Of a stretch of 19,544 nucleotides of DNA, positions 1,467 through 19,544 are shown one piece after another. Within the stretch, counting starts at the first letter, position 1. The number at the start of each line of letters is the position of its first letter. Under the pieces are notes generated by a model. The model made no database searches. It worked only from the letters and a program-made list of their open reading frames with translations, and was not told where the DNA came from. Source of the DNA: Pseudomonadota bacterium (GTDB lineage: Bacteria > Bdellovibrionota > FAC87 > UBA2466). A program made the translations under genes and the position numbers. The stretch spans positions 1-19,544 of the forward strand of contig JAYSWN010000193.1 in NCBI GenBank assembly GCA_043718025.1, written 5' to 3'.

Positions 1467-1524
1467 CTCTTTACCTCTTTACTCACAGCAACTCGAAAAC
1501 GACCCGCTTCCTTTTGTTATCAAT

Positions 1525-2574: not shown

Positions 2575-2668
2575 GAAGCCAGTCGTACGGTTTCGGACGG
2601 GGCGAAACACAAAAAATGGCCGACCTATTTGGGCCTTTGGAAAAAAACCAATCGACTGGAGTGGTTAG

Positions 2669-3397: not shown

Positions 3398-3604
3398 AAA
3401 GATAGGTGATTCTTAGGATTATCGGAACGACGCGGCAGAGAGGGACTGATTCGGTAAACTGCGAAGTGCCGAAAACACTCCGCGCGCATATACGCATTTA
3501 CCTGCACTGAAAGGCAAGTCTTAGCCAAGCAATTTCCGATCGCGTGAGACGACAGGCGCCGGGGTGAAATAATAACGGCCTCTCGATTGGGTAGCGAAAA
3601 ATCT

Positions 3605-4660
3605 CTAGCCAATTGCCGAGTGGTTGCTCAATATTTGCCCGACGGCACGAACGTCATCGTTTGTTGTTCCATGCTTAGCCAAAAGTTTTTCAAACTCACG
3701 ATAAGCTTGGTCCCATTTCTCTTGATGAATGTAGCCCATGATTCGTGACGCTTCGACCATTGGCCATTCTGTCACCCCCAATGGTTGGCAGGAGTATTCA
3801 AAGGCGGCCTCGTACTCATCTTCAGAAAACGATTCAAATGAGTAATTCCTATTTAATGCTTCGCTAGTGAAGGGCGCAACCAACTCAAAAATAACGGAGC
3901 CAGTCCCCTTCACAATGTGTTTGAGCCGAAAGTTTCCGCGAAACCGAAACATCAGTAGATGGATCCAAGGGGTATAAAAATGGTTAAAGTCTTGATGATG
4001 TATCAAAGAAAGATTAGGCACCAACTTTGGGAAAAAAATTTTTACAACAACGTTGGCCAAATTCCACGACTTCATTACGTCGATAAAAAGGTATTCAATA
4101 TCCATTGGGAAGCGGGAAACGAAATTGAGATCGGCAGGGTAGACTTCAATCAGGGCTTTGCGTTGTTTAATGGTTCTTTTGAATAAGCGAAGAAATGAAT
4201 CACCCTCTTTTATTCGTTTCGCCAGCTTTGAGCCCTCGAAGGTGTCAGCCATCCAAGACTCCCACACGAAATCATCAAAAGCATGAATGCGCTTTTTCTT
4301 TTTAGACACGCGCTGGTTCTTTACCAGGCCATTAGCTAACCCTAAGGTCGAACCTCCCAACCAACATCCGAGGTCTACCATTTCTCCTTTTCCCAAATAA
4401 GAATGCTCAGCGAAGCTCTGCAGACTATCGAGTTCGGCCGCCAATAACATGGTCGAAGGCGGGTAAAGGTTGTCTTTTGCTCTGGTAATAATTGAGCGCG
4501 AAAAACGGCGGACACTACGGGGGAAAAAATTTCTGAACAACACTATGCGGCCACACAGTAGCCTTGGGGGCTTGCCACTAATTCCAGAAATGACCCGGCT
4601 TGCTTGCTTGTCGTTAACATAATGGTACCGATTCTCCCGGCGATTACCGCCTATCCTCAT
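3605..4660 (-). CDS. Class I SAM-dependent methyltransferase (TylF/Methyltransf_24-like), probably glycan-modifying
   Basis: SAM-binding motif I VDLGCWLGGST, plus IHAFDDF, YLFIDVMKS and HHQDF. ATG 4660 overlaps the GT2 stop (ATGA), but the first 40-70 aa look non-conserved, so the real start may be downstream. Confidence 0.75.
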   Translation of the reverse strand: MRIGGNRRENRYHYVNDKQASRVISGISGKPPRLLCGRIVLFRNFFPRSVRRFSRSIITRAKDNLYPPSTMLLAAELDSLQSFAEHSYLGKGEMVDLGCWLGGSTLGLANGLVKNQRVSKKKKRIHAFDDFVWESWMADTFEGSKLAKRIKEGDSFLRLFKRTIKQRKALIEVYPADLNFVSRFPMDIEYLFIDVMKSWNLANVVVKIFFPKLVPNLSLIHHQDFNHFYTPWIHLLMFRFRGNFRLKHIVKGTGSVIFELVAPFTSEALNRNYSFESFSEDEYEAAFEYSCQPLGVTEWPMVEASRIMGYIHQEKWDQAYREFEKLLAKHGTTNDDVRAVGQILSNHSAIG

Positions 4661-5424
4661 TTTTCTACGGTATGAAAGTCAGTAAGCTGTCGGGGGAAGC
4701 TAGGCACATGCCCGAAGTAAAGGCCAAGCAACCGCAGCAGGTGGGTAGTACCGTACCTGAGCAGGTTGACGTTGCTGCGATCGGCCTTACCCCAGGTAAT
4801 AGGAAAGTCCACGAGGCGAATGCGTTTATGGCGGGCGGCCAACAGCACCAGCAGAGGCTGATAACTCATGTCAGGAGGGAGCTTCCAGTAGGGGAGACTC
4901 TGAATCGTTTTTAAATTGAATGCAATGTAGGCGCCGATATCACCCAGTTTTTGGCCCACAACTATATTTTGAATCGTCTCAAAAAACCGATTTCCCAGCC
5001 AACGAATCAAAGAGTAATTTCTGGCAAGCGATCTGTCGGCCAGCCGATTTCCCAAAACAAAGTCCACCGACGGATCCGCCCGATCCAAAAAATCATCCAG
5101 CGCGCGGGGGTCGGCCTGCCCGTCACTATGAAGACAAACCAGAAAATCGCCGCCGGCGGAAATCGCCTCTCGTAGCGCGATGATTGTGGAGCCGCCCAGG
5201 CTATAATTTGTTGCGTTGAATAATAATCGAAAACGGAAGTCGGCGCGTTTTTCCAACCATTCCCTTAGCACTTCGCGAGTCCCGTCGGCACTGCCGTTAT
5301 CTATAATTAAAATCTGGTGAAAGCGCTTCAGCGTCGCGGGGGGAATGGCCTCTAGCACCGCTAAGACCCGATCGGCGACATTATAGGTTGGCACAAAGAG
5401 GAAATACCGGGGCGGGTGGCTCAT
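4657..5424 (-). CDS. Glycosyltransferase family 2 (polyprenol-phosphate glycosyltransferase/DPM1-like)
   Basis: FVPTYNV, IIDNGSADGT, NYSLGG, CLHSDGQ (DxD-equivalent), DFVLGNR and R..GN motifs. Confidence 0.9.
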   Translation of the reverse strand: MSHPPRYFLFVPTYNVADRVLAVLEAIPPATLKRFHQILIIDNGSADGTREVLREWLEKRADFRFRLLFNATNYSLGGSTIIALREAISAGGDFLVCLHSDGQADPRALDDFLDRADPSVDFVLGNRLADRSLARNYSLIRWLGNRFFETIQNIVVGQKLGDIGAYIAFNLKTIQSLPYWKLPPDMSYQPLLVLLAARHKRIRLVDFPITWGKADRSNVNLLRYGTTHLLRLLGLYFGHVPSFPRQLTDFHTVEK

Positions 5425-5465
5425 CGCTAGATTCTGCCCAACTTGTGATAAACTTCAAACGCAAA

Positions 5466-7097
5466 ATGCAAATGGAATCGCCTTCAAAAACGAGTACCAT
5501 ATGCATTCTGGCCGCCGGCTCTGGCACCCGCATGGGACGCTATGGGAGCATGACCCACAAAGCGCTCCTCCCCATTGCGGAATCAGCAGCAATTTCTCAC
5601 CTTATAGAAAAATTTCTTGCTCTCATCGGCCCCAAGGCTCGCTTTGTGATCGCCGTCGGTTTTCATGCCACTGACGTGATCGATTACGTTGAACTGGCGC
5701 ATCCCGACATTTTAGTGGAATTCATGCGCGTTGACGATTTTGACGCTCCGGGCGCAGGACCCGGTGCCTCTGTCCTGGCGTGTAAAAAGTTGCTCCGTAC
5801 TCCCTTCTACCTGACGTGCTGCGATGCGCTCTGGACCGAGATCCATATCACGCCTTTTTTATGGAACCGGGATTGGCTTGCGGTGGCGCGGGTAGAAACT
5901 AAAGTTACGGTGGACTACTGCAATGTGCGGATCGCCGGCTCGGAAGTGCTGAGCTTTTACGATAAAGAAAAAGTGGCGGGGAATGAGTTCCGAACTTTTA
6001 CCGGTCTGGCTCACATCGCCCACCCCGCAAGTTTTTTTCATTCGCTCAAAGGCGCTCAACTTCACTCTGCCTCCCTTGAATTGGCCTCCGGCTTTTCGGG
6101 ACTGCTCTCCCCCCACGGCGCCGGATTATTTATCTGTGAGATGACGGGCTGGCAGGACATTGGCACCCTGGAGCGCTATGAAGAGGTAAGGCGGCTATAT
6201 GGCGGCGCTGGTTTTTTAAAGTTCGGAGAGCTTTTCTACCGGGTGAATGATCAGGTTATCAAGTTCTTTGCCGATCCCAGCGTGGTCTCCATGCGGGTAG
6301 CACGCGCCGAAATTCTGGATCCGCTGACTCCGGCGGTACTGCAAGCCCGCCGCCATTTTTTTTCCTATCGCTATCTTCCGGGGCAGACACTTTACGAGGC
6401 CATAAGCCCGGGGCGTCTGGAGAATTTTCTTCATTGGCTGGAGAAAAACTTATGGCATCCGGTAGAGGTTTGCGCTCAGGAAAAACAACAGCGGGGACTG
6501 GAGTTTTATAGAGATAAAACCCTGGGGCGAATGGATTCTTACTTTGAGGACAAAAAGTGCCTCGTTGACGCGCCAATAAAAATACAAATTAAAACGCTTT
6601 TAGCAAAAGTACCCTGGGAACGGCTTTCTCAGGTACGGCCTGTCCTTTTTCATGGGGATCTACAGCTGGATAATATAATTCATCATCCACCGACAGGACA
6701 GTATTCCCTGATCGACTGGCGACAAGACTTCGCCGGTTCCCTTACCTGGGGGGATCTCTACTATGACTGCGCCAAGTTACTATGCAGTATCGAAATCGAT
6801 TTCAGAAGAATTCAACGGGCCGACGGCAGTATCTTTGGGACCGCGTGCCCCATTCCAAACGCAGAAATTTTACGGAACGTGCTAAAGAATTTTTTTTTGA
6901 AAAAGCGGCTCGAGCCCGCCCGAATCGATCTTCTAATGGCGCTTATTTGTCTAAATATGGCGGGTATTCAAACAGCCCCCAGCAATAGAATTCTTTTCGA
7001 AGAGGGGTATCTCAGGCTGCAACGGTGCTTGGAAGCCTCTGCACGGCCCGGAATAAAAAGGGGGCTTTCGGGCGACAATATGGAATCGGTCGAATGA
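5466..7097 (+). CDS. Bifunctional nucleotidyltransferase (NTP_transferase/LicC-like) and APH/choline-kinase-like phosphotransferase
   Basis: The N-terminal part has ILAAGSGTRM..KALLPI, CCDAL and WQDIGT. The C-terminal part has the Brenner motif FHGDLQLDNII, LIDWRQ and GDLYYDCAKL. The start is placed at ATG 5466 (or 5472) because 5388 overlaps the divergent GT2. Confidence 0.85.
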   Translation: MQMESPSKTSTICILAAGSGTRMGRYGSMTHKALLPIAESAAISHLIEKFLALIGPKARFVIAVGFHATDVIDYVELAHPDILVEFMRVDDFDAPGAGPGASVLACKKLLRTPFYLTCCDALWTEIHITPFLWNRDWLAVARVETKVTVDYCNVRIAGSEVLSFYDKEKVAGNEFRTFTGLAHIAHPASFFHSLKGAQLHSASLELASGFSGLLSPHGAGLFICEMTGWQDIGTLERYEEVRRLYGGAGFLKFGELFYRVNDQVIKFFADPSVVSMRVARAEILDPLTPAVLQARRHFFSYRYLPGQTLYEAISPGRLENFLHWLEKNLWHPVEVCAQEKQQRGLEFYRDKTLGRMDSYFEDKKCLVDAPIKIQIKTLLAKVPWERLSQVRPVLFHGDLQLDNIIHHPPTGQYSLIDWRQDFAGSLTWGDLYYDCAKLLCSIEIDFRRIQRADGSIFGTACPIPNAEILRNVLKNFFLKKRLEPARIDLLMALICLNMAGIQTAPSNRILFEEGYLRLQRCLEASARPGIKRGLSGDNMESVE

Positions 7098-8701
7098 GCG
7101 GGCTGGCGAGTTCGCTCAGGTCTCACTGGAATTTGGCGGTCAGTTTTATTCTTGGCCTTTCTTTTTTGGTTTCGACTCCTCAGCTTGCCACCTCTCCCCG
7201 AACCTTTCTCCTGGCCCGGATTCTGGCCGCAGCTCTGATTGGATCTGCTTGCTGGCTTCTGATTTGGGGAGTGGCCTCTGGTCCCCAGGCAATAGAACAG
7301 AGGACGATCCTCCAAAAAAAGTTCCTAAAGGAATGGTTCATACAGGCCTCGTTTGGACTAGTACTCCTAGGAAGCTGGCTTGGCGGACAATGGCCCGGTT
7401 TTCTTAACATCGACACTTTTGTAATTTATAGGGAGCTGAAGTCCCTGCGCCTGCATGAATGGGCGTCCTCGCTCTATTCTCTATATCTGCTGACACTTCA
7501 GCAGCTCAGCAAGAATCCGGGGCTGGTCCCTGCGGTTCAGGTGGTAGTCGCGGCGGTGCTCTCGGGATTTCTGTTTAGCCTTCCCGTGCTCGATGGCAGA
7601 CCGGTGTGGATTTGGCGATTGCTGCTTTTTATTTTCCTCATAAATCCACTCAATGGCGCTCTTAATGTGACGTTGAGCCGCGATATTATTTTTTCGTGGT
7701 GCCATATGGGCTGCGCCTTGTTTGTTCCGTGTTACCGGCTTTTTTACCCCGACAAGGCGAACCCATCACTTTTGCTGATTGGGGCTTACAGCCTGGCCGT
7801 GGTCTGCACCGCAAAGTTACGAATGGAAACGGTTCCCACCTTAATTGTGCTACCGTTTTTGTTGGCGGGAATTTGCCTTTGGCGGCGGAAAGCCGTTGCT
7901 ATTTTCTGTGCGTTCACCGCCTTTTTCGGCGTATTGATTTTCGAAACCATGCCCAGCTGGACCAGAACTTTTTCTCCTGCGCTGTCCTACTCCGCCACCT
8001 CATTTATTAATCCCTTAAGTTACCTCCTTCACCATTCCTACAAGACGGATGACCGCGAAGGGGATGCCCAAATCATCGATCGCTTTCTTGATTTTTCACT
8101 GATGGCGAAAATGCCTGACCCCTACGAAATCACGGCGTTTCATAAAGGCTTGCGTAAGCCGGTAAAAAAAGAAAATTATTTAGCGTTACGCAATTTGTTT
8201 CTAAAGATGATCTGGCGCAATCCGGGGCTTTTTATTGAGAATCGCTGGGTCATGTTTCTGGCATTGAATGGCTATGGCAGGCACACGTTCTACTTTGGCA
8301 ACGATCTTGAAGCACGGCTGCCGGGTTCAGCCGAGCTAAGGAGTTGGTTCCCCTCAATCAAAAAAGCACCGTGGTCGGAGCCGCTTCATGCCCTACAGTT
8401 GAGGCTATTGCGCCCTTTCTTCCGCGGAGAGATTGTGCCCTTTCCCACTCTCTTTGTTACCAACACTATTGCCTTTCTGGTACTCCTGCTGAGCTTGCTT
8501 TTATTTCCGTGGGCGCCGGCAACCGCGGGAGCGGCGCTGTTCGTTTTTTTGCGGCTGGTCATTGTATTTCTAACCGCGCCGGCTCCGCATTTCACTTATG
8601 TCTACGGGGTCTATCTCTTTGGCGTTTTTGCCCCCGTATTGCTCTGGATGGAGTTGCAAAAAAACGGCTCGAATAAATTGGTAGGGCAGTCAGTACCCTA
8701 G
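7094..8701 (+). CDS. Polytopic membrane protein, GT-C-like glycosyltransferase candidate
   Basis: About 12 or more hydrophobic segments. The first loop WPGFLNIDT...HEW resembles the PG...D-S/T loop of GT-C/DUF6020-like proteins, there is an RDIIFS motif, and a large soluble loop lies before the C-terminal TMs. ATG 7094 overlaps the upstream TGA (ATGA), indicating coupling. Confidence 0.65.
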   Translation: MSGLASSLRSHWNLAVSFILGLSFLVSTPQLATSPRTFLLARILAAALIGSACWLLIWGVASGPQAIEQRTILQKKFLKEWFIQASFGLVLLGSWLGGQWPGFLNIDTFVIYRELKSLRLHEWASSLYSLYLLTLQQLSKNPGLVPAVQVVVAAVLSGFLFSLPVLDGRPVWIWRLLLFIFLINPLNGALNVTLSRDIIFSWCHMGCALFVPCYRLFYPDKANPSLLLIGAYSLAVVCTAKLRMETVPTLIVLPFLLAGICLWRRKAVAIFCAFTAFFGVLIFETMPSWTRTFSPALSYSATSFINPLSYLLHHSYKTDDREGDAQIIDRFLDFSLMAKMPDPYEITAFHKGLRKPVKKENYLALRNLFLKMIWRNPGLFIENRWVMFLALNGYGRHTFYFGNDLEARLPGSAELRSWFPSIKKAPWSEPLHALQLRLLRPFFRGEIVPFPTLFVTNTIAFLVLLLSLLLFPWAPATAGAALFVFLRLVIVFLTAPAPHFTYVYGVYLFGVFAPVLLWMELQKNGSNKLVGQSVP

Positions 8702-9171
8702 TTAATAATCACGGGTTTTGCTCCGGTTACTCGATAACGGGGGTCTACCGGATCGATGAATAGCTTGTGCGAGTGGCCATCGACCTCGGTGGTCTGCAAC
8801 GTCACCCGCTTTAATTGTTTTAATACCGCAAAATGTTCGGGGGTAACGGTAAATTGGTGATCTCGGCCACCGTGACCATGCCAAAAAGTAAAGGGAACCG
8901 GTTTGTTTTCAATGATGGCGGCCACCCGAATGATCCCCGTTTTGGGCCCTAGGCCGCCGTCAAAATAGAGGGCCATCGCGTTGGTGTCATAAAGCGTGAT
9001 CGCTTTTCGTATGATCTCTTCGGGCGGTTCGAAACTAAAAAGGGAACTGGCTTTCGGGGCGTTAGAAAATTGTCGCCCGCAGGCAGCCAGCCCGCCAACC
9101 ATAACTCCCATCACGCTGGCTAACGCGGCCCGCAGAAAATCTCTTCGATCTAGATTTACGCAAGTTTTCAA
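8698..9171 (-). CDS. Tat-exported His-rich lipoprotein of unknown function (putative metal binding)
   Basis: SD AAGGAG lies 8 nt before TTG at 9171. There is a twin-arginine motif DRRDFL, a hydrophobic stretch, lipobox LAAC, and C-terminal FWHGHGGRDH...EH...GHSH. Confidence 0.8.
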   Translation of the reverse strand: MKTCVNLDRRDFLRAALASVMGVMVGGLAACGRQFSNAPKASSLFSFEPPEEIIRKAITLYDTNAMALYFDGGLGPKTGIIRVAAIIENKPVPFTFWHGHGGRDHQFTVTPEHFAVLKQLKRVTLQTTEVDGHSHKLFIDPVDPRYRVTGAKPVIIN

Positions 9172-9390
9172 GCAGAAGACTCCTTTTTTAAGGTCTAGTC
9201 CAAGCTTAAAACGGGGCGCGCCAGCGCAGGGACTATCGAACAATAAATGCTAACAGGCGCTAATAAGGTAGCCGTGGAAGCTAGTGGCATTAAATCCGCC
9301 GCCAATGCTAGAAGAGTGGTTTAGCGAATAAAGGCGAGGCTAGTCAGAGCCTTCTTAAATACGTTTTTTAAAGTTTAAAGGATGAATGCG

Positions 9391-10503
9391 ATGCACGAGA
9401 GAACGCCCTATAATCTCTTATTCCTAATGCTTCTAATGCTTTACACATTGCCGTTCAGCACCTCTCCCGCCTTTTCTGATTCGGTGCCCGAGGATGATAA
9501 TTCTACCCCCGACCTGCAAAAGACAAAGTTTGATAAGTTTGGCCACTCATTCGCCCCGGTTGTGGGCTACGACCCCACTTTTGGCGTCGTGGCTGGTGGC
9601 GCCTATTTTTATGAAGAGAGGCGTTTAGGCCTGCACGTCGACGCCAATACCAACTTTCGCCAGGTGTACCAACTTCACTACTCCTACCGCCACCAGTTCG
9701 GCGACATTTGGGAACACGGTTGGCGTGGCACACTAATGAAGGGTTTTGATCCTTACTACGGCGAAGGGGGAGAGACCACGGTGGGAAACTACAGCCAAAT
9801 CTGGGGACTGCAGACGCATAACCGTTTTCACTTCGGAATCCGCACCTCTCCCATTTTTTTAATGGGGGCCTTTTTGGATCTGCGCACGCGCAGCGAAGAG
9901 GCTGGCGCCAATAGCCCCGTCACTCGAGTGGGGCCCGATGAGCAGACCGCGGCGGTTGGCCTTTTTCAAAGGCTAGACACCCGCAAGCAAAAGCCTGGCA
10001 CTTTGATCGCCGAAGGCTTTTTGCTGGAATCTTCGGTAAGTCACGTGCCAAGAAAATTTACCTCCGCCGCAGATCAAGAATCGTTTACTCAAGTTGAAGG
10101 TGATTTCATTGTTTACAAAGAAATTTTGGAACAGATTCTTCCCGATGTAGTGGCAGCGTTTTCCCTTCGTGGCGGTTTCACGATTGGAAATCCAAACTAT
10201 GCTTTTACCTACCGACTAGGCGGAACCAATTCCTTGCGCGGTTACCTAGAAAATAGATTTCGAGGAAAAAAATATTACCTGCAACAGACCGAAATACGCT
10301 TTCCGGTAATTCAACCCGTTGGAGTGGCGGTCTTCATGGGCTTCGGCGATGCCTCTAGCACCGATTTTACTGACGCCAAAATGGCTTACGGAGCCGGTCT
10401 ACGCATCGGATTGCCTCCAGATTACGTAAGTCAGGTGCGGCTTGATTTCGGTTTTGCCCGTGATCAATGGGGGTTCTTCGCCAACTTCGGGCAAGTTTTC
10501 TAG
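9391..10503 (+). CDS. Omp85 (BamA/TamA) family outer-membrane beta-barrel without POTRA domains
   Basis: Signal peptide, P-V-V-G-Y-D-P-T-F-G first strand, lid-loop motif YRLGGTNSLRGY (VRGF/Y equivalent), YGAGLRI, VRLDFG, and a terminal NFGQVF beta-signal. The start is 9391 (AAGGA 8 nt upstream) or 9382. Confidence 0.85.
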   Translation: MHERTPYNLLFLMLLMLYTLPFSTSPAFSDSVPEDDNSTPDLQKTKFDKFGHSFAPVVGYDPTFGVVAGGAYFYEERRLGLHVDANTNFRQVYQLHYSYRHQFGDIWEHGWRGTLMKGFDPYYGEGGETTVGNYSQIWGLQTHNRFHFGIRTSPIFLMGAFLDLRTRSEEAGANSPVTRVGPDEQTAAVGLFQRLDTRKQKPGTLIAEGFLLESSVSHVPRKFTSAADQESFTQVEGDFIVYKEILEQILPDVVAAFSLRGGFTIGNPNYAFTYRLGGTNSLRGYLENRFRGKKYYLQQTEIRFPVIQPVGVAVFMGFGDASSTDFTDAKMAYGAGLRIGLPPDYVSQVRLDFGFARDQWGFFANFGQVF

Positions 10504-10582
10504 CCTTTGATTCAACGCGTTGCGCCCGCAAAAAAACAGCAGAGATGTTCAGAAATGTCCGATAAGCCCCTTAGGAGCGCTT

Positions 10583-11413
10583 ATGGGCAGCTACACCCCT
10601 TCGGTCATTGAGACGTTTAGTATCCTCCTCGCCATTATTTTGATGCGCTATTTCGTGGTTTCGGCCGCCTTCTATTTTGCTACCACCTTGGTTTTCAAAA
10701 AACGGTGGCAAAAACGCCGGCTCCACCACGAAATCATTTCCCGAAAACAGATTGTCACCGAAATCGGCTGGTCGATGTTGTCGTGCCTGATTTTTGCCGG
10801 CGCCGGCACCTTGGGGCGCACCCTTTGGGCTCAGGGTTACACCAAAGTTTATTTAGATGTCTCAACCTACGGTTGGATCTATTTCTTTGCCAGCCTTCCG
10901 CTACTTTTGTTCGTTCACGACACTTACTTTTATTTTACGCACCGGTTGATGCATCTGCCTCGGTTATTCCGCGTCATTCATAAAGCACACCACGAATCCC
11001 GACACCCTTCACCATTTTCCTCGTTTTCTTTTCATCCCATCGAGGCCGTAATCGAAGCGTTAATCCTACCCATACTGGTGACGGTGATTCCCACTCATCC
11101 GGCAATCCTTCTGGCCTTTTTAACGATCATGTCAATTTTTGGGGTGGTGAACCACACCGGATACGAAATCTATTCTCAGGCGTTCGTCAGTAACCGCTGG
11201 CTTCGCCATTGGCTAACCACAACGCACCACGAGATGCACCACAGCCATTACCGCACCAACTACAGCTTATATTTTACCTTTTGGGATCGCTGGTTAAATA
11301 CCGAGCATCCCGATTATGAAACCACGTTCTTCGCGTTTACCGAGCGGCTCAAACTACCAACGAGTGTAGGGGCCGTTTTTCACGGCACGCCAAGCCAGTC
11401 CAAAAGTTATTAG
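10583..11413 (+). CDS. Sterol desaturase / fatty acid hydroxylase superfamily protein
   Basis: His boxes HDTYFYFTHRLMH, HKAHH, NHTG and HHEMHH, plus NYSLYFTFWDR. SD AGGAG precedes ATG 10583. Confidence 0.93.
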   Translation: MGSYTPSVIETFSILLAIILMRYFVVSAAFYFATTLVFKKRWQKRRLHHEIISRKQIVTEIGWSMLSCLIFAGAGTLGRTLWAQGYTKVYLDVSTYGWIYFFASLPLLLFVHDTYFYFTHRLMHLPRLFRVIHKAHHESRHPSPFSSFSFHPIEAVIEALILPILVTVIPTHPAILLAFLTIMSIFGVVNHTGYEIYSQAFVSNRWLRHWLTTTHHEMHHSHYRTNYSLYFTFWDRWLNTEHPDYETTFFAFTERLKLPTSVGAVFHGTPSQSKSY

Positions 11414-12154
11414 TACCGTCACCAGCGAAAAGACGGCGCATAACATCGCCGAGATATCTGAAGTGCCCAAAACACCGAAACGGACGCCATTTATAAAATA
11501 AAGCATTGGGTTGGCCTTCGACAACGTCTGCCAAAAGGGATGTAAGTTAGTCAGGGGGAAAAATACTCCGCCCAAATACAGCAAAGGCAGCAAGATAAAC
11601 CCGCCCACCGCGCTTAGCTGATCAATGCTCTTACTCCTAAAGCCAATGGCAATTCCCAAGCTCGAAAAAGCAAATCCGCCCGTGCAAAGAAAAAAAACCA
11701 AAGCTAATGGATGAGCGATTACCAGCCAATCATTCTGAGTCACGTAAAAAAAAGCCTGCCCTACTGAATACGTGACCAGCCCCACCACAAAACCGCGAAC
11801 CATGCCAGCAAGACTCATGGCGCACACAATTTGCAGGTGAGTCAACGGCACCGTTCTCAGGTCTTCAAGGTCACCATGAAACTTGGACGTTGCGATCGAG
11901 CTGCTGCTGTTTTGAAAAGCGTTATTAAGCACGCCCATCATGATTAGACCAGGGATCAGAAACGCAATGTAAGGGTGGCTAGAGCCTACTTGAATGCTGT
12001 TTCCTAAACTGACGCCAAAAATCATCAGGTAAAGCGTAGAGTTAACCAAGGGGATCAAAATTGTTTGTGCGATTACCCGCCAAAATCTCAACACCTCTTT
12101 TTTAAACAGCGTGAGAAAGGGCACCCAAATTAGATTCGAAGCGGTAGAGCTCAT
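11354..12154 (-). CDS. ABC-2 type transporter permease (YadH-like)
   Basis: TLFKKEVLRFWR, LYLMIFG, YIAFLIPGLIMM, LGGVFFP and NPMLYFINGVRFG; six TM segments. Confidence 0.93.
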   Translation of the reverse strand: MSSTASNLIWVPFLTLFKKEVLRFWRVIAQTILIPLVNSTLYLMIFGVSLGNSIQVGSSHPYIAFLIPGLIMMGVLNNAFQNSSSSIATSKFHGDLEDLRTVPLTHLQIVCAMSLAGMVRGFVVGLVTYSVGQAFFYVTQNDWLVIAHPLALVFFLCTGGFAFSSLGIAIGFRSKSIDQLSAVGGFILLPLLYLGGVFFPLTNLHPFWQTLSKANPMLYFINGVRFGVLGTSDISAMLCAVFSLVTVLITFGLAWRAVKNGPYTRW

Positions 12155-13047
12155 TGCGCCTCCTTAATCAAATGCACGAAGGCGTCTTCGAGACTGCCTT
12201 CGCGAATATGCACGTCGAGCAGCCGCTCAGGGGCTAAGGCCAGCTCCCGAATCACATCGCCCACCACCTGATGGCTGGGCACCTTGAAAATAAGATCATC
12301 CCCTTTTTTCTCAACGAGACGCGGGTGCCGAATGCCACTGAGATCGCCTGAAACTTTGAGATGAATCTCACGGGTGGTGAGGTGGTTTATCAACGTTTGG
12401 GTCTTCTCAATTTTAAAAATCTGCCCCTTATGAAGAATGCCCACGCGCGAGCAGAGCGACTCGGCCTCTTCCAAGTAATGCGTAGTGAGTAAAACCGAGA
12501 CCCCCTCGGCGTTCAGCTCACGCACGAACGACCACAATGAGGTACGTAGCCCCACGTCAACGCCGGCCGTGGGCTCATCCAACAAGAGAAGTCGTGGCTT
12601 ATGAACCAGCGCCTTGGCGATCAACAAACGGCGTTTCATACCGCCGCTCAGCTGGCGAACCCGTTTTTCTCGATGCTCGGCTAAACCCAGGCGGTCGAGC
12701 AAGAAATCGATCTGCTTCTGGTTTTTCCGGATGCCGAAATATCCAGAATGAAAGTGCAGGACCTCTTCTACGGAGAAGAATCCATGGCTTACGGTTTCTT
12801 GCGGCACGCAACCGACCAGTGGTTTGGATTTTCCGTCTTTGCCAACGTCCACGCCAAAAACCCGGGCCGAACCTGAAGTGGCCCGAATGAGAGTCGTTAA
12901 AATCGAAATTAAGCTGGTTTTACCCGCCCCGTTTGGGCCCAAAAGGCCAAAAACCTCGCCTGGCTCCAGGTGAAACGAAACGTTATCGAGAGCCTTAAAA
13001 TTGCCGTAAGTCTTAGATAGTCCGATGATTTCGAGGGGCTTTTCCAT
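12151..13047 (-). CDS. ABC transporter ATP-binding protein (YadG-like)
   Basis: Walker A GPNGAGKT, signature LSGGMKRR, Walker B LLLLDEPT and H-loop TTHY. There is an ATGA overlap with the permease gene. The start is placed at ATG 13047. Confidence 0.95.
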   Translation of the reverse strand: MEKPLEIIGLSKTYGNFKALDNVSFHLEPGEVFGLLGPNGAGKTSLISILTTLIRATSGSARVFGVDVGKDGKSKPLVGCVPQETVSHGFFSVEEVLHFHSGYFGIRKNQKQIDFLLDRLGLAEHREKRVRQLSGGMKRRLLIAKALVHKPRLLLLDEPTAGVDVGLRTSLWSFVRELNAEGVSVLLTTHYLEEAESLCSRVGILHKGQIFKIEKTQTLINHLTTREIHLKVSGDLSGIRHPRLVEKKGDDLIFKVPSHQVVGDVIRELALAPERLLDVHIREGSLEDAFVHLIKEAQ

Positions 13048-13112
13048 AGCGGGTGCCAAAAACTATGCCTTTTCGGATTGGTCCTGAAAAGGTAATTACT
13101 ACCTCCTTAACT

Positions 13113-14795
13113 ATGAGTGACGATCCAGTAAATCAAAAGCGCCGCCTTCAGGCAGAGATTGCCCGCCGGCGCACCTTTGCGATCATCTCGCACCCGGATG
13201 CCGGTAAAACCACGCTTACTGAAAAACTCCTCTTATACGGGGGCGCGATTCATTTAGCCGGCGCCGTAAAAGCAAAGGGCAGCGCGCGAAAAACAACCTC
13301 GGATTGGATGGAAATTGAAAAGCAGCGGGGCATCTCGATTAGCACCAGCGTGCTGCGTTTTGAATACGAGGGTAAGCTGGTCAACCTGCTCGATACCCCC
13401 GGCCACAAAGACTTCTCAGAAGATACGTACCGTACATTAGTAGCGGTTGACTCGGCGGTGATGCTCATCGACGCCGCAAAAGGCGTTGAGCCTCAAACCC
13501 GAAAGCTTTTTGAAATTTGTCGCATGCGCGGCATTCCCATTTTTACTTTTATCAACAAGCTCGATCGCCCGGGTCGTGATCCCTTTGAACTGCTCGATGA
13601 ATTAGAAAAAGTGTTGGGTATTCGGTCTTGCCCCGTCAGCTGGCCAATCGGAATGGGACCGCGTTTCAAAGGCGTATATGATCGGGCGGCCAAAGAGCTT
13701 CTGCTTTTTAAAACCGACGGTAAATCTCACGTGGCCAAAGAGATTGTTCCGCGAAAAGTGGATGACATCCGATCAAAAGAAATTCCGCGGCTACTCGCCA
13801 ACGGCCCGGCCGATTTGGAAGACTGCGAGCTTTTGCACCAAGAACTTTTAGAGCAGCTCGACCTGGTTGACGCAGCCGCTGAAGAGATGAACATGGAAAA
13901 GGTGCTGGCGGGACAGCTAAGCCCCGTTTTTTTTGGCAGCGCGATGAACAACTTTGGCGTTCAGCACTTTTTAGAAACCTTTTTGAAAATGGCCCCGTGT
14001 CCTGGTCCACGTAAGGCGGTGGAAGGCGACATCAATCCCGAAAACCCCGAGTTTTCGGGATTTTTCTTTAAGATCCAGGCCAATATGGATCCCCAGCACC
14101 GTGATCGCGTTTCGTTTTTACGAGTTGGCTCCGGACGCTACTACCGCAATATTCCGGTGACCCACGCCCGACTAAAAAAAGACTTTAGGTTAAATAAGGC
14201 ACTGCACTTTTTTGCCCAAGAGCGCGAGCTTATCGAAGAGGCGTTTCCGGGAGATGTGATCGGAATGTTGGACACCACCGGTGATTTTCGTATTGGCGAC
14301 AGTCTGTACGAAAATAAGCCGATCACTTACGAGGGCGTACCTCGTTTTTCTCCAGAAAACTTCACCACCATTGCCGTTGGCGATCCGTTGCGACGCAAAC
14401 AAATGCAGCAAGGGCTCGAGCAGCTTTCTGAAGAAGGGGTCGTACAGATGTTCCACCATTGGGGCGGCGGCAATCTGTATCCGATTTTAGGGGCAGTGGG
14501 CGCTTTGCAGTTTGAGGTGCTCGAGCACCGCTTGAAGGCAGAATACAAAGTCGATCTTAAGTTAGAGCGAATGCCTTTTATCAAAGCCCGCTGGATCGTA
14601 AACCGCAGTAGCGCCGATTTTGCCAAAGCACTCGAAAACTTTCGCCATCTAGCCGAAACTCAACTGGTAGAAGATCGCGATAAAAACCCGGTAGTGCTCT
14701 TTCGCAGCGAATGGAGCGTGGGGTTCGTAACCGAAAAATATAAAGATCTAGATTTTTTACCCGTGGCGCCACTTAAAGGGGCCGAAAAAAAATAG
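13113..14795 (+). CDS. prfC: Peptide chain release factor 3
   Basis: RRRTFAIISHPDAGKTTLTEKLLLYGGAI, SDWMEIEKQRGISI, DTPGHKDFSEDTYR, NKLD, FKIQANMDPQHRDR and GAVGALQFEV are hallmark RF3 motifs. The start is placed at ATG 13113. Confidence 0.98.
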   Translation: MSDDPVNQKRRLQAEIARRRTFAIISHPDAGKTTLTEKLLLYGGAIHLAGAVKAKGSARKTTSDWMEIEKQRGISISTSVLRFEYEGKLVNLLDTPGHKDFSEDTYRTLVAVDSAVMLIDAAKGVEPQTRKLFEICRMRGIPIFTFINKLDRPGRDPFELLDELEKVLGIRSCPVSWPIGMGPRFKGVYDRAAKELLLFKTDGKSHVAKEIVPRKVDDIRSKEIPRLLANGPADLEDCELLHQELLEQLDLVDAAAEEMNMEKVLAGQLSPVFFGSAMNNFGVQHFLETFLKMAPCPGPRKAVEGDINPENPEFSGFFFKIQANMDPQHRDRVSFLRVGSGRYYRNIPVTHARLKKDFRLNKALHFFAQERELIEEAFPGDVIGMLDTTGDFRIGDSLYENKPITYEGVPRFSPENFTTIAVGDPLRRKQMQQGLEQLSEEGVVQMFHHWGGGNLYPILGAVGALQFEVLEHRLKAEYKVDLKLERMPFIKARWIVNRSSADFAKALENFRHLAETQLVEDRDKNPVVLFRSEWSVGFVTEKYKDLDFLPVAPLKGAEKK

Positions 14796-14985
14796 CCCTT
14801 GCGACGTTTTCTCTTCCGATAACGAACACGATGTCACGCGTTAGCTCTGCGCGTTATTTTTAAACTCACCCGGTTGCTGAATTCAGATTTTGGTGGGAAA
14901 CTATTCTCCATCGGTTTGGCGCATATTTTTTGTTTCAGGCCTTTGTTTTATCAACTTAATTGTCACTCATCGAAAGGACATAACC

Positions 14986-15270
14986 ATGAACCAATGGTCA
15001 AAAGCACTCGTAGGTGCGGTAGTAGCAGGCTTTCTCACTTCACAAACTTTAAAGGCCGATGAAACAGCTCCCGCGGCGACGGACCCGTCGGCAGCCCCGG
15101 CCACGACTGAAGCCGCTCCAGCGGCTGATGCAACGCATAAAAAAGCCAAAAAAGGCAAAGGCAAGAAAAAGCACGGCAAAGACGGCTGTGGCGGAAAATC
15201 CGGATGCAAAGGTGCCGATAAATCCAGCTGCAAAGGTGCAGACAAGTCTAGCTGCAAAGCCAAAGAATAA
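14986..15270 (+). CDS. Secreted Cys-motif precursor peptide for the adjacent MNIO (bufferin/oxazolin-like RiPP precursor), 94 aa
   Basis: SD AAAGGA precedes ATG 14986. The product has a Sec-type signal (…TSQTLKA/DE), an Ala/Pro/Thr acidic linker, a Lys-rich block and four Cys motifs (KDGCGG, KSGCKG, KSSCKG, KSSCKA). It lies directly upstream of DUF692 and DUF2063. Confidence 0.88.
   Translation: MNQWSKALVGAVVAGFLTSQTLKADETAPAATDPSAAPATTEAAPAADATHKKAKKGKGKKKHGKDGCGGKSGCKGADKSSCKGADKSSCKAKE
15205..15259 (+). repeat. 24-bp coding tandem repeat (2.3 copies) encoding CKGADKSS
   Basis: tgcaaaggtgccgataaatccagc / tgcaaaggtgcagacaagtctagc / tgcaaag; all 4 differences between the two full copies are synonymous third-position changes. 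Confidence 0.92.
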
Positions 15271-15284
15271 CTGATTGGATGTTT

Positions 15285-15319
15285 GGCCCCGAGGGCGTTT
15301 CGCCTTTGGGGCCTTTTTT
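15285..15319 (+). terminator. Intrinsic terminator-like hairpin between the precursor and MNIO genes
   Basis: GGCCCCGAGGGCG-TTT-CGCCTTTGGGGCC forms a 13-bp stem with 2 G:U pairs. It is followed by TTTTTT and then immediately ATG 15320. Confidence 0.85.
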
Positions 15320-16198
15320 ATGAGACTTCCTGATTTCCCCCACCTTGGTTTTGGAGTCGGCTTTCGCCACCATTACTCCGATTTTTTTTCGCAAAACCGA
15401 CCCGCCAAAATTGATTGGGTGGAAGCCATCACCGAAAATTATCTCCCTTGGGAAGACGGCACCTGGGTACGCCCCATCGAAATGCTCGAAAAGGTTCGGG
15501 CGCACACTCCGGTCGCGCTTCACGGCGTCTCACTTTCAATTGGTTCCGAAGAGCCTTTAAACGAGAGCTACTTATGGCGTTGGAAAGAGCTAGTTGACCG
15601 GATTGAGCCGGCTTGGATTTCTGACCACCTCTGCTGGACAGGTAGCAGTGCGCACAACGCCCACGACTTACTCCCTCTGCCATATACCACCGAGACCCTA
15701 GCTCTTCTCGTCGACAAAGTGACGCGCATACAAGATTTTATGGGCCGCAGGCTCATGCTCGAAAATGTCTCCAGTTACGTAGAATTCAAGCACGCTGAGT
15801 ACACCGAGTGGGATTTTCTTGCTGCCTTGGCCAGCAAAGCCGACTGCGGTCTGCTACTCGATGTGAACAACATATACGTAAGCTCGATTAATCACGGCTT
15901 TGACCCGATGACCTATTTGCGGGCAATTCCCAAAAAACGAGTGGGGCAGATCCACCTTGCCGGTCATCGAAACAAAGGCACCTACTGCATCGACACGCAC
16001 GACGAACCGGTGTGTGATAACGTTTGGAATCTTTACCGTTGGGCGTGGCAACATTTTGGTCCAGTTAGTACGATGATCGAACGCGATGATCGTTATCCTG
16101 AGTGGAACGAGCTTGCCCAAGAGGTAGACCGGGCAAGAAACTTAGCCAAAGAACCGAATGCCAAACTTAAACCTAAAGACACTTCAGCAACGCTTTAG
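15320..16198 (+). CDS. DUF692 multinuclear non-heme iron-dependent oxidative enzyme (MNIO; BufB/HvfB-like maturase)
   Basis: GFGVGFR, WVEAITENY, LHGVSLSIG, WISDHLCW, DLLPLPY, LENVSSY, LLDVNNIY, QIHLAGH, IDTHD and MIERDD are the conserved DUF692 iron-ligand motifs. The start is placed at 15320 because the track start 15275 runs through the hairpin. Confidence 0.96.
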   Translation: MRLPDFPHLGFGVGFRHHYSDFFSQNRPAKIDWVEAITENYLPWEDGTWVRPIEMLEKVRAHTPVALHGVSLSIGSEEPLNESYLWRWKELVDRIEPAWISDHLCWTGSSAHNAHDLLPLPYTTETLALLVDKVTRIQDFMGRRLMLENVSSYVEFKHAEYTEWDFLAALASKADCGLLLDVNNIYVSSINHGFDPMTYLRAIPKKRVGQIHLAGHRNKGTYCIDTHDEPVCDNVWNLYRWAWQHFGPVSTMIERDDRYPEWNELAQEVDRARNLAKEPNAKLKPKDTSATL

Positions 16199-16934
16199 AA
16201 AAGCGGTAACTGAACAAGGCGCCAGGCAGAGCCCAGCTTGGCTTGGGGTCAAAGACACGGCCCCTATCCCATACCAACGCCGCCTCGATATTTACCAATT
16301 CGCTTACTTCGCCCGCATCCACGAATCCCTAGCCGATGACTTCGAAGAGCTCAAGAAATTGGTCGGAGACAAGAACTTTGAAAAAATTTGCCGCCTCTAT
16401 CTAACAAAATACCCTTCTCGTTACGCCAGCCTTTCGGAACTTGGACGCCGGTTACCGCAATTCTTATTGGAAGAAAGGCCTTGGGCGGCCAAACCCTATT
16501 TAAGCGCGTTAGCCGCTTTCGAATGGGAAGTTTTTTTGGCCACCGTAACCGCCAACCCAAAACTGCACAGCCCCAGTGGGGAGAGCGCCACGAATGCTGC
16601 CCAATTTTTTTTTCTCCATCCCGCCGTTCGCCTCTTTGAATCGATTTGGGAAGTAGATCGAATAAAAAAAAGGGAAAAGAAAATCCCCAAAGGGAAAAGC
16701 AAATTATTCTGGGTTATTCATCGACAAGGGCACGACATTTACTGGTACCGCATCTCAGCCGTTCAACATGAGGTGCTCACTCTGTTGTTTAAGGGGCACG
16801 CAACCGACAGCCTGGTAGCGACCTTCGAAAAGCGGAAAGTCTCTCAACGCCAAGCTTCGGTCTGGTTCAAACTCTGGGCAGAAAACAACATTATTACGGG
16901 GTTCCAGAATGCGCAGACTGCATCGTCAACTTAG
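16158..16934 (+). CDS. DUF2063-containing MNIO partner protein (BufC/HvfC-like)
   Basis: LKTLQQRF...RRLDIYQFAYFARIHESLADDF...LVG...F...YP S...L...G..LPQFL...LAAFEW...FLHPAVRL is the DUF2063 pattern. It overlaps the MNIO gene by 41 bp. Confidence 0.9.
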   Translation: MPNLNLKTLQQRFRKAVTEQGARQSPAWLGVKDTAPIPYQRRLDIYQFAYFARIHESLADDFEELKKLVGDKNFEKICRLYLTKYPSRYASLSELGRRLPQFLLEERPWAAKPYLSALAAFEWEVFLATVTANPKLHSPSGESATNAAQFFFLHPAVRLFESIWEVDRIKKREKKIPKGKSKLFWVIHRQGHDIYWYRISAVQHEVLTLLFKGHATDSLVATFEKRKVSQRQASVWFKLWAENNIITGFQNAQTASST

Positions 16935-18699
16935 TTTTATCGCACTACTGCCGTTCCTGGTTCTGTCTTCTGCGGCAAATGCAAAATTGAATTGGCAAGG
17001 CTGGTCAAACGAGGCCTTCGCAAAGGCAAAAGCCGAAAACAAGTTGGTGATCTTAGATCTTGAAGCCATTTGGTGTCACTGGTGCCACGTAATGGAGGAA
17101 AAGACTTACTCCGATTCAGCAATCGTTAAAATCCTCGAAGAAAAATTTGTGCTCTTACGCGTCGATCAAGATTCACGGCCAGACCTTTCTCAGCGCTATT
17201 CTGATTATGGTTGGCCAGCCACCATTATTTTTGATGGCGCGGGCCGCGAGCTCGCGAAACGGGCCGGTTTCATTTCGCCAGAAAAATTTCTTGCTCTCAT
17301 CAAAAAGTTGGTGGCAAACCCTATCCCCGAAGAGATCGGAATTGACGAGAAACCCGAAGTTCCAAAAAGCCCTTTCTTATCCGAAGAGCTTAAAAAGAAG
17401 CTAAAAGACCTGCACCTTAAACAATACGATAGCAAGAATGGCGGCTGGGGTCGTATTCACAAGTTTATTTTTGGTCCGAGCGAAGAGCTGGCGTTAAGTG
17501 ATTCGCGAAAAGGTGACAAGAGAAGCGCTAAGATGATGGTCACCACCTTAGCCCAGGCCAAAAAGATCATCGACCCCGTGTGGGGAGGTGCCTACCAGTA
17601 CTCGGTAGAAGACTGGGAAGAGCCTCACTTCGAAAAAATTGCGCTCAGCCAACTAAAGTTTCTGCAGACTTACGCGCTAGCCGCACGACAAAGTAAAAAC
17701 CCCGACTACCTTCAGGCCGCAAACAACATCAAAAAATTTCTAGTCGGTTTCTTGTTAGCCCCCGAGAAAGCCTTCTACACCAGCATGGACGCCGATTTGG
17801 TTAAGGGCACCCACAGCGAAGAGTATTTTAAGCTAGATGATAAATCACGCCGAGCTAAAGGGGTGCCCGCAATCGATAGAAACCTCTACGCGCGCGAAAA
17901 TGGCTGGTACACGCAAGGGCTGCTGTCACTCTACTGCGCCAGCGGTAGTGAGGAAGACCTGAGCCTCGCTAAAAATGCCGCGTCATGGGCGATAAAAAAT
18001 CGCGGGCGAAAAGACGGGGGGTTCAACCATGCCACTACGGATGCCGCTGGACCATACCTGGGCGATAGCCTGGAAATGGGGGCCGCTCTATTAGCTCTGT
18101 ACGAAAGCACGGGCGATAGACAATGGCTCAGTAATTCGCGGGCGGCCGCCACCTTTATTTCTAAAATGTTTTCGGTCGAAGTGGACGGCAAAGGATTCGG
18201 TTTTAAAACCACGGCCTCACTTTTATTACCTAACCAAAAGCCAGACTATGATCGCACGGAAAACGTGCGCCTAGTCCGGTTTACGAATCGACTGTTTCAT
18301 TACACCGGTGATGAGCTTTTTAAAAAGATGGCCGAACAGGGAATGCGTTACCTCGTGCAACCCAAACTGGCCTCCGAGCTTCCCACCGCCGGCACTTTAT
18401 TAGCCGACGACGAACTGATTCGGCCACCGTTACACATTACAATCGTAGGTGCGAAAACTGATCCCAATGCCAAGGAGCTTTTTTCCGCGGCCCTGGCCTA
18501 CCCAGCCACCTTTAGGCGAATTGAGTGGTGGGATAAAAGCGAAGGAGAACTTCCGCGCAAAGACGTGAACTATCCCACTCTGTCTAAGGCGGCGCTGTTC
18601 GTATGTACAGAAGGGCGCTGCTCACTGCCGATGTTTGACCCATCGACAGTGGCAGCTAAGATTAATGCGTTGTTAAAGGTGAATGCCGCCGAACTTTAA
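16909..18699 (+). CDS. Secreted DUF255 thioredoxin-domain protein (YyaL/SPATA20-like, C-terminal alpha/alpha barrel)
   Basis: Signal peptide ending SAANA, followed by NWQGWSNEAFAKAKAENKLVIL, WCHWCHVME (CxxC), VDQDSRPDL, GWPAT, DPVWGG..QYS..DW..PHFEK, FYTSMDAD and a C-terminal VCTEGRCSLP. It overlaps the upstream gene by 26 bp. Confidence 0.9.
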   Translation: MRRLHRQLSFIALLPFLVLSSAANAKLNWQGWSNEAFAKAKAENKLVILDLEAIWCHWCHVMEEKTYSDSAIVKILEEKFVLLRVDQDSRPDLSQRYSDYGWPATIIFDGAGRELAKRAGFISPEKFLALIKKLVANPIPEEIGIDEKPEVPKSPFLSEELKKKLKDLHLKQYDSKNGGWGRIHKFIFGPSEELALSDSRKGDKRSAKMMVTTLAQAKKIIDPVWGGAYQYSVEDWEEPHFEKIALSQLKFLQTYALAARQSKNPDYLQAANNIKKFLVGFLLAPEKAFYTSMDADLVKGTHSEEYFKLDDKSRRAKGVPAIDRNLYARENGWYTQGLLSLYCASGSEEDLSLAKNAASWAIKNRGRKDGGFNHATTDAAGPYLGDSLEMGAALLALYESTGDRQWLSNSRAAATFISKMFSVEVDGKGFGFKTTASLLLPNQKPDYDRTENVRLVRFTNRLFHYTGDELFKKMAEQGMRYLVQPKLASELPTAGTLLADDELIRPPLHITIVGAKTDPNAKELFSAALAYPATFRRIEWWDKSEGELPRKDVNYPTLSKAALFVCTEGRCSLPMFDPSTVAAKINALLKVNAAEL

Positions 18700-19544
18700 G
18701 CCCGCTCTTCGATCCACAAATTGCATAGGCTCGCGTACGTTTCCGCAATTTTTTCGGCAGCCTGATCACGCGTCATCCGGTTTTCGCGAAACGCTTTGAG
18801 CGGTTCCCAAAATACCGTTCGGCCCACCGCAAAACCAATTACGCCCTTCACGTTGGCGCCAACTTTAAGCCATTCGCGAACCTTCTGTTCGTTTTCGCCG
18901 CGGCCCAACACAATGCAACCCACCTGCTCACGACCGCCATCGGTGGCCGCTTTACAAACCGCTTCAAAATCAACCGTGCGATCTAACCCTTCGAGTTTCC
19001 AGATATCGGCTTCAATTCCGGCTTTCTGAATTTCGTGGATGGCTTGAATCATCAACCGCGGCCGCACTTCAACGTCGTACATTTTTTTGTCGCCGTTGCA
19101 TTTTTCAAGCTGGCCCGCGGTCGCCGGAACCAAGAGCTCGAACATAAATTTGCGATTCGTCTTTTCTAAAAATCGCGATAACTCGGCAAGCCGGGTGGTT
19201 TGCCGGACGTTGCCCGCTTTTTCGCCTTCGGGATTATAGCGAACCAGCACTTTAATAATCTGTGGGTTCACCGCATCGATATGCTGCTGCCAGTCAGTGT
19301 ATTCAAAGTCGAATTCGTCTTGCCCACTTTTTTCTACGCAGATGCATAGAGTCACACCGTCTTTGCGGGCCTTCTCAATCACCTCGGCCCCAAATTGTTC
19401 ATCAACCAAAACGCTCATTTTGGCTTTGGGCAAACCCTTCGCCAGAGCTTTCGTAAAGCCTTCGTAGATCAGCGTTTTGTAGGAGCTGATCATTTTTACT
19501 TGTTCCGGAGTGGGCTTACCAAAAATCCCAAACATCTTTTCTTG
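18696..19544 (-). CDS. DUF2090 family class I aldolase-like protein (IolC C-terminal/LacD-like); 5' end lies beyond the window
   Basis: YKTLIYEGF, VLVDEQFG, VEKSGQDEFDFEY, KVLVRYNP, FMFELLVP, DIWKLEG, CIVLGRG and GFAVGRTVF. The frame stays open to the window edge (…QEK-MFG), so ATG 19535 is probably internal. Confidence 0.85.
   Translation of the reverse strand, partial: QEKMFGIFGKPTPEQVKMISSYKTLIYEGFTKALAKGLPKAKMSVLVDEQFGAEVIEKARKDGVTLCICVEKSGQDEFDFEYTDWQQHIDAVNPQIIKVLVRYNPEGEKAGNVRQTTRLAELSRFLEKTNRKFMFELLVPATAGQLEKCNGDKKMYDVEVRPRLMIQAIHEIQKAGIEADIWKLEGLDRTVDFEAVCKAATDGGREQVGCIVLGRGENEQKVREWLKVGANVKGVIGFAVGRTVFWEPLKAFRENRMTRDQAAEKIAETYASLCNLWIEERA

Follow-up and report, generated by a model that had tools for sequence, protein, structure and literature searches.

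Organization of the Locus

The window (i.e., the whole stretch of 19,544 nucleotides under analysis) harbors a putative precursor peptide gene followed by three larger genes on the same strand. The features of the locus are the following:

14894..14920, + strand: conserved element TGGGAAACTA ... GTT, about 90 nt before the precursor ATG, found in three same-genus genomes
14986..15270, + strand: precursor peptide gene, 94 aa, with same-position orthologues in two genomes of the genus, G001 (locus L103) and G002 (locus L108)
14986..15057, + strand: predicted Sec signal peptide, residues 1-24, recognized by eye from a basic beginning and a hydrophobic run ending in A↓D-E
15178..15270, + strand: core with Cys68, 74, 82 and 90 in K-x-x-C-x-G/A, as read in the sequence
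15196..15259, + strand: 2.7 tandem copies of a 24-bp unit with 85% matches (score of 86 in Tandem Repeats Finder)
15285..15319, + strand: 13-bp GC-rich hairpin followed by T6, between the precursor and MNIO genes (-27.2 kcal/mol, z -4.0)
15320..16198, + strand: MNIO (DUF692) maturase of the BufB type, 292 aa (NF050167, 351.4 bits; PF05114)
16158..16934, + strand: DUF2063 (PME type 1, BufC-like) partner, 258 aa (PF09836, 66.4 bits)
16909..18699, + strand: thioredoxin-like protein of the DUF255 family, bearing C-H-W-C, with an N-terminus resembling a signal peptide (PF03190, 91.9 bits)

The ATG of the 94-residue ORF is preceded by GAAAGGA, and the equivalent ATG with the same Shine-Dalgarno sequence is the start in both orthologues of the same genus; a longer start, from the TTG at 14890, is possible and would add one cysteine to the precursor. 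The predicted signal peptide, likely cleaved after L-K-A, is the best-conserved part of the precursor alignment (A3), and the peptide is likely to be secreted. It is followed by an acidic Ala/Thr/Pro linker (residues 25-50), a Lys/His patch with a charge of about +9 (residues 51-65), and the four-cysteine core (residues 66-94). The ORF lies directly upstream of a BufB-type MNIO gene and its DUF2063 partner, in agreement with the earlier note on this DNA, which had regarded it as an MNIO precursor. In a scan of the source genome (G000, 92% complete), it alone turned up among the small ORFs with at least two such motifs, and it adjoins the only MNIO found there.

The element located upstream of the precursor contains a 10-mer that is identical, at -89 to -96, in the source genome and in those of the two relatives, despite a different upstream gene in one of them (G001). 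It is possibly an alternative (ECF-type) sigma promoter; it is not general across the phylum, and a scan of the source genome returned 25 matches, 22 of which inside long ORFs, with no regulon found. Hairpins similar to the one separating the precursor and MNIO genes exist in both same-genus loci, and a strong hairpin (z < -2) occurs in 29/50 loci of the scaffold-free type (see below) vs. 14/39 Buf2 loci. The hairpin ends with six T ahead of the MNIO ATG, so that no clear ribosome-binding site remains; the MNIO frame is also open from a TTG at 15275. It is likely that this structure acts as a leaky terminator or as an mRNA stabilizer favoring the precursor over the enzyme.

The rest of the window (335-14795 and 18696-19535) looks like unrelated housekeeping. 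Family scans disclosed a M28 peptidase, a NUDIX protein, a Crp regulator, a glycosyltransferase, a nucleotidyltransferase-kinase, Omp85, a fatty acid hydroxylase, release factor 3 and DUF2090, and an ABC transporter pair was recognized by eye. A 181-aa ORF (8698-9243, - strand) shows a weak twin-arginine signal match and two His-rich motifs near its C-terminus, with no family match; its sequence would be compatible with a possible exported metal-binding protein.

The Cysteine Core

Counting from the ATG, the only cysteines of the precursor are Cys68 (KDGCGG), Cys74 (KSGCKG), Cys82 (KSSCKG), and Cys90 (KSSCKA), whose codons begin at 15187, 15205, 15229, and 15253; motifs, positions, and spacing (6, 8, 8) are exactly those first reported. 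Three of the four are followed by lysine. All four fall in K-x-x-C-x-[GA], an outcome reached in a fraction of 1.5e-5 of 200,000 shuffles of residues 25-94, a figure that overstates the case, since the last three motifs belong to one tandem repeat and are not independent. It is the 24-bp repeat that gives rise to both the 8-residue spacing of the cysteines and the repetition of DKSSCK.

The mature precursor is likely disordered, as its composition suggests, since none of its 70 residues is a bulky hydrophobic one (V, I, L, F, W, Y, or M). The AlphaFold2 model contains only a 4-residue helix (pLDDT 57), which, for a single-sequence prediction run with no folded control, lends weak support. The disorder proposed for the repeat core in the earlier note is thus upheld as likely. 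A prediction of the complex formed by the MNIO, its partner, residues 51-94 and three Fe, with a score of 0.02 (mark 0.32), carries no weight in either direction.

Comparison with Known Precursors

The window peptide retrieved no match to the BufA2 (NF050166) or HvfA (NF050188) models at E <= 1, and none to PF10048 (DUF2282, Bufferin 1), a model passed by the one control tried (L133, 72.4 bits). The BufA2 model, whose membership threshold is 60 bits, was passed by two of four Buf2 controls (L146, 61.4 bits; L196, 66.2 bits), and an intermediate precursor (L100) scored 40.2 bits; run on the source genome it gave no match, an uninformative outcome, as it gave none in the control genomes either. 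Among 21 other scaffold-free proteins, eight had sub-threshold BufA2 matches (best E 5.3e-7) and three sub-threshold HvfA matches. The profile built on alignment A3 had no PDB match at E <= 1. A word-index protein search with residues 50-94 yielded no candidate, and none of the 597 pattern matches from a metagenome scan using the precursor was confirmed as a relative, both being methods that fail on short low-complexity sequences.

A weak signal came from the Asr model (19.2 bits, E 0.0016), which would make the ORF a basic repetitive periplasmic protein placed upstream of the MNIO by chance and not its substrate. The match scores well under the cut-off of 50, spans residues 8-72 instead of the core, and was rejected as compositional; moreover, a Cys-bearing ORF fills the same slot in 50/106 related loci, with Buf2 or Buf1 in 40 others, so that such a coincidence is extremely improbable.

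The earlier note had compared the core with the EGKCG and DUF2282 types. Both were correctly excluded, the peptide having neither an EGKCG motif nor a DUF2282 match, and no precursor model matching it; a third published group, the Cys-Lys captophorins, had been overlooked. This group (PMC12668002, published as PMC13097082) shares with the window the MNIO and PME1 (DUF2063) genes, multiple Cys-Lys pairs and an Asp after the catalytic Asp; the available part of that study takes the folded BufA2 as its example, and neither separates the scaffold-free form nor tests it. Dataset S2 of the same work flags as CK-style scaffold-free Lys-rich precursors such as WP_220165998.1, with SCKAK repeats, and WP_083270191.1, with repeats of KDGCK.

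Bufferin 2 of Caulobacter vibrioides (BufA2B2C2; BUF_6/12Cys; NF050166; PMC11626156) has the same A-B-C gene order with no DoxX, and shares with the window a Sec signal (predicted here), a BufB-type enzyme, a first cysteine spacing of 6 and four candidate modified cysteines in an x-[SAG]-C-K-G context. Unlike Bufferin 2, with its six/twelve-Cys pattern, its CysI-CysVI disulfide and its beta/alpha fold, the window peptide has four cysteines, no CysI or CysVI, no structural disulfide, and neither beta-sheet nor helical fold in the model; its spacing is 6-8-8 instead of mostly 6-7-6, and the residue at -2 is Asp or Ser instead of Asn. HvfA, fontiphorin, gonophorin, and bulbicupramide (the EGKCG or Lys-Cys group; NF050188) are, like the window peptide, repeat-type and Lys-rich, and also, as predicted for it, of the Sec type, with a variable number of cysteines, and the bulbicupramide cassettes are also flanked by Lys runs (PMC12538549). 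However, the window peptide has no EGKCG, its lysine follows the cysteine instead of preceding it, and its MNIO, below the HvfB cut-off, carries Asp where the EGKCG-type enzyme has Phe. The CxxxxC family (PMC12452194), judged by motif alone, has a spacing of 5 and differs from the 6, 8, 8 found here. According to the same source, hundreds of small signal-peptide ORFs with 1-18 cysteines precede BufB-like MNIOs and fit no profile; the window peptide belongs in this unassigned bin, which, in the parts of that work that were compared, is not grouped into a family.

Taken by its sequence, the window peptide is likely Buf2-like in chemistry and HvfA-like in architecture, falling outside Buf1, Buf2, and HvfA by their defining features. 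In the literature searched, which leaves most subscription journals outside its coverage, no study of a scaffold-free Cys-Lys peptide was found.

The Maturase and Its Neighbors

The MNIO passes the BufB model (NF050167, cut-off 310) and remains below that of HvfB (244.3 vs. 360), and the DUF2063 partner is also below the HvfC cut-off (63.8 vs. 142). Ten residues (H68, H103, E148, D181, N184, H212, D225, H227, E254, and D256) are invariant in 46 MNIO sequences and correspond to the ligands and the base of the active site, which is intact in the window enzyme. The enzyme has E254-R-D256-D257, which aligns to the ERDF of PDB 3BWW, so that Asp257 corresponds to the Phe of that structure (the FonB Phe250 equivalent being judged via 3BWW only).

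A switch from Phe to Asp after the catalytic Asp has been described as the mark of Cys-Lys MNIOs (PMC12668002). In the 50 scaffold-free loci this site is occupied by D (14), G (14), A (12), N (4), S (4), or E (2), and never by Phe, and Asp is found in 21/39 Buf2 loci. With Asp in only 14/50 loci, the scaffold-free group as a whole escapes the specificity rule as published. A cysteine is followed by lysine in 28/50 cases where the site is Asp vs. 51/147 elsewhere (scaffold-free loci, independence not assumed).

The DUF255 gene, which overlaps that of the partner, occupies the same position in two other loci (L103 and L083), with weaker matches in four more of the 184 searched; its product is a possible redox accessory, of uncertain membership in the cluster. 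It takes the slot where DoxX often sits, DoxX-like genes being present in 23/104 relative loci (many of which end early).

This C-x-x-C protein bears on an alternative in which the pathway would be the same and only some cysteines would be modified (e.g., the three Cys-Lys ones and not Cys68), the rest forming a disulfide handled by the DUF255 protein. In each of Buf1, Buf2 (PMC11626156), and HvfA (PMC11252979), two cysteines are kept as a disulfide, and Cys68 (C-G-G) is devoid of the lysine that Asp257 is proposed to bind. Nevertheless, the cysteine number in relatives (1 to 8) is often odd, no pair is fixed and there is no fold in need of stabilization, C-G-G and C-S-G are common among them, and the DUF255 link concerns few loci; such a partial modification therefore appears rather unlikely.

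No DoxX follows the partner gene in the window, and family scans of the window revealed neither a copper-resistance gene nor a sigma factor adjoining the locus; both absences speak against the copper-sink reading preferred below. The source genome yielded no match for the heavy-metal P1B ATPase (TIGR01525), vs. matches in 30/33 family relatives; the genome being 92% complete, this may be an assembly gap. The lack of copper genes nearby would fit a main job elsewhere for the modified cysteines, i.e., in the handling of a different soft metal, in oxidative stress, or in the envelope, where the Lys patch could serve as a polycation, given the charge of residues 51-65. Published fusions tie bufferins to mercury loci (PMC12452194), and E. 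coli was protected from copper by bulbicupramide only slightly (PMC12538549). Since copper is bound by every characterized product of the MNIO-DUF2063 type (PMC11626156, PMC12668002, PMC12538549, and PMC11252979, within the parts available), we consider a non-copper role to be of low probability.

Scaffold-Free Precursors in Bdellovibrionota

MNIO homologues (E <= 1e-50) were retrieved in 168/401 genomes of the phylum, presumably Bdellovibrionota judging by the names of close relatives, and 106 loci out of about 190 matches, mainly the best-scoring ones, were examined. The class of the precursor was assigned by regular expression, with one locus (L205) placed in the scaffold-free type by eye. 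Upstream of the MNIO, 50 loci (the window included) harbor a scaffold-free precursor, 39 a Buf2 and one a Buf1; 14 have no plausible precursor and two no upstream ORF. The scaffold-free bin is mixed, with a few members bearing Lys-Cys motifs. Among the best 80 MNIO loci from other genomes, most have a Buf2-type precursor directly upstream, as judged by eye.

The MNIOs of the two same-genus orthologues are 68% and 71% identical to that of the window. Their precursors keep the signal peptide, and the cores are rearranged, with KDGCSG, KDGCKG, and DASCKG; in one of them (L108) the core precedes the Lys patch. Neither DKSSCKG nor KSSCK occurs in any of the 88 other MNIO-adjacent precursors of the phylum, both orthologues included.

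The 193 cysteines of the 49 other scaffold-free proteins have Lys at -3 in 116 cases (46.8 in shuffled sequences) and Gly at +2 in 109 (24.5), and Cys-Lys occurs 76 times (48.2) vs. 32 for Lys-Cys (48.1); these counts are descriptive only, as the proteins are kin and not independent. The emphasis of the earlier note on Lys at -3 thus holds for the group as a whole, even if only nine of the 49 have every cysteine in K-x-x-C-x-[GA]. The context of the cysteine in 48 of them (K-3 60%, N/D-2 45%, G/S-1 58%, K+1 39%, G+1 25%, G+2 56%) gives a consensus G-K-[ND]-[GS]-C-[KG]-G-K, close to the G-x-N-[AS]-C-K-G-K of Buf2 CysII-V (N-2 60%, A/S-1 60%, K+1 52%, G+2 84% in 31 six-Cys proteins). Lys at -3 is more enriched in the scaffold-free type (60% vs. 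a background of 25%) than in Buf2 (31% vs. 18.5%).

A phylogenetic tree of 114 MNIOs (quick LG+G4, with one outgroup row falling within the ingroup) gathers 40/50 scaffold-free loci in a single branch (SH-aLRT 85), and the scaffold-free label requires six changes vs. 37.4 when shuffled. The scaffold-free and Buf2 branches interleave, and from this quick tree the direction of scaffold loss or gain is not readable.

Other arrangements were also observed. Two scaffold-free precursors are in tandem in L107, and in L148 a Buf2 precursor is in tandem with a short one of the scaffold-free type; in L094 and L160 a hybrid precursor sits after the partner gene. In L198, L200, L208, and L212 an exported protein of about 200 aa, presumably YceI-like, is directly before the MNIO. 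A second MNIO type, 32-38% identical to the window enzyme, is present in L136, L137, L138, L139, and L140 (family f1, second MNIO loci). It is preceded by short ORFs with no obvious signal peptide (L140:1142-1297, L136:706-882, L139:1117-1254), one with four C-W-R-N repeats and the others with H/C-rich tails, and is followed by a different partner and then, in L137, L138, and L140, by a CxxxCxxC ORF that we assume to be a radical SAM enzyme. These loci possibly represent an undescribed MNIO + radical SAM RiPP cluster.

Wider Searches and the DKSSCKG Motif

A profile of 34 scaffold-free precursors gave 1,054 matches at E <= 0.001 in 1.84 billion representatives (68 at E <= 1e-10), an upper bound in clusters counted without gene context. 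The best 150 are all devoid of the Buf2 scaffold pattern; 145 have K-x-x-C-x-G, two DKSSCKG, and none EGKCG, counts that lean toward the profile; four of the 150 were among its inputs.

A second search disclosed precursors combining Buf2-like N-x-C-K-G repeats with a tail such as KSSCKGKSGCK, seven of seven having sub-threshold BufA2 matches. From 80 metagenome loci belonging to this family, 71 ORFs were parsed, and a MNIO directly follows in all the 59 cases with room for it. KSSCKG was counted in 35 of the 71 ORFs (many of them near-copies), KSGCK in 36, and DKSSCKG in four; both window motifs being common in this Buf2-like family, they are ordinary variants. The MNIO-adjacent precursors of the metagenome loci L219-L295, often with the KSSCKGKSGCK tail, begin with M-D-R-R-E-F, which to us has a twin-arginine signal look; their MNIOs form one branch, with E-W-D-E in 45/45 readable cases. 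Tat rather than Sec export, if true for this family, would be unusual for the class.

The earlier note had viewed DKSSCKG as a distinct recognition motif. If it were the dedicated motif of a separate MNIO subfamily, possibly with another chemistry and a defined multinuclear metal site, the failure of all precursor models, the stronger enrichment of Lys at -3, and the single branch holding most scaffold-free loci would find an explanation, as would the absence of DKSSC from Dataset S2 of PMC12668002 (0 matches). This view does not withstand the comparison with relatives. The repeat is a local DNA duplication, found in none of the 88 other precursors of the phylum and in two of the top 150 profile matches; orthologues served by MNIOs 68-71% identical use KDGCKG, KDGCSG, and DASCKG; KSSCKG, which ends 35/71 Buf2-like precursors served by a separate MNIO branch, is not peculiar to the window peptide; the conserved cysteine context matches that of the modified Buf2 cysteines; and the window MNIO, passing the BufB model, carries the Cys-Lys-type Asp257. 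A dedicated DKSSCKG subfamily is therefore very unlikely.

Proposed Function of the Window Peptide

The gene order, the enzyme family, Asp257, the motif statistics, the lack of hydrophobic residues and the spread of the type are direct observations. By analogy with characterized systems, from which modification, export and copper binding are carried over, the gene is probably the precursor of a scaffold-free Cys-Lys captophorin (bufferin-2-like), whose cysteines would be oxidized to 5-thiooxazoles and which, after predicted Sec export, would act as a periplasmic copper sink.

According to this scheme, the precursor, MNIO, and DUF2063 genes would likely be co-transcribed, the hairpin holding the precursor in excess. 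The unfolded peptide would be bound by the heterodimer of MNIO and partner, which would oxidize each cysteine by four electrons. Recognition would rely on a loosely defined local context (small residue-Cys-Lys/Gly-Gly), where Asp257 would pair with the lysine after the cysteine, as published enzymes suggest. The expected mass change would be -4.03 Da per cysteine, up to -16.1 Da from 6825.4 Da; up to four modified cysteines, as previously supposed, are plausible. The signal peptidase would then free residues 25-94. Each chain would take up about two Cu(I) through paired thiooxazole thiols; alternatively, these pairs would link different chains in a mixed Cu network, as described for EGKCG products. 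Neither a structural disulfide nor a folded cage would be involved.

It is known that all the characterized MNIO-PME1 cases install 5-thiooxazoles and generally bind Cu (PMC12668002), and that the four central cysteines (CysII-V) of Caulobacter Buf2 carry shifts of -4.03 Da (PMC11626156). For HvfA, the data are consistent with one Cu(I) for every two modifications (PMC11252979); bulbicupramide binds Cu(I) (PMC12538549), fontiphorin bound up to four Cu with aggregation (PMC12668002), and several Cu per chain are reported for repeat-type captophorins (PMC12668002, PMC11252979). Since the disulfide retained by HvfA is possibly important for its modification (PMC11252979) and Buf1 requires one for stability (PMC11626156), the disulfide-free window peptide may be only partly modified.

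Common among relatives, the scaffold-free Cys-Lys type belongs to a known peptide class, of which it is a variant that has received little description. A bolder proposal, which we advance tentatively and with some doubt, is that scaffold-free Cys-Lys captophorins form a large subfamily of their own, whose MNIOs would read K-x-x-C-x-G through a real contact with Lys(-3), with a relaxed Asp257 site and no need of a fold or a disulfide. If so, the core would grow and shrink by DNA duplication into multi-copper sponges, nearly every flexible peptide would be open to thiooxazole formation by these enzymes, and current precursor models would have missed the type that is commonest in the Bdellovibrionota sample.

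No new chemistry is indicated, and the DKSSCKG repeat is without special meaning. The described captophorin architectures are the folded Buf1, the folded Buf2, and the EGKCG repeats; the window peptide fills the missing combination, i.e., Buf2-type Cys-Lys chemistry on an unfolded repeat core. The type is common, with 50/106 loci examined and, as an upper bound, 1,054 clusters at E <= 0.001, and a new profile for it would close an annotation gap. The window peptide represents a clean case for asking whether Cys-Lys MNIOs need the Buf2 fold or the local motif only.
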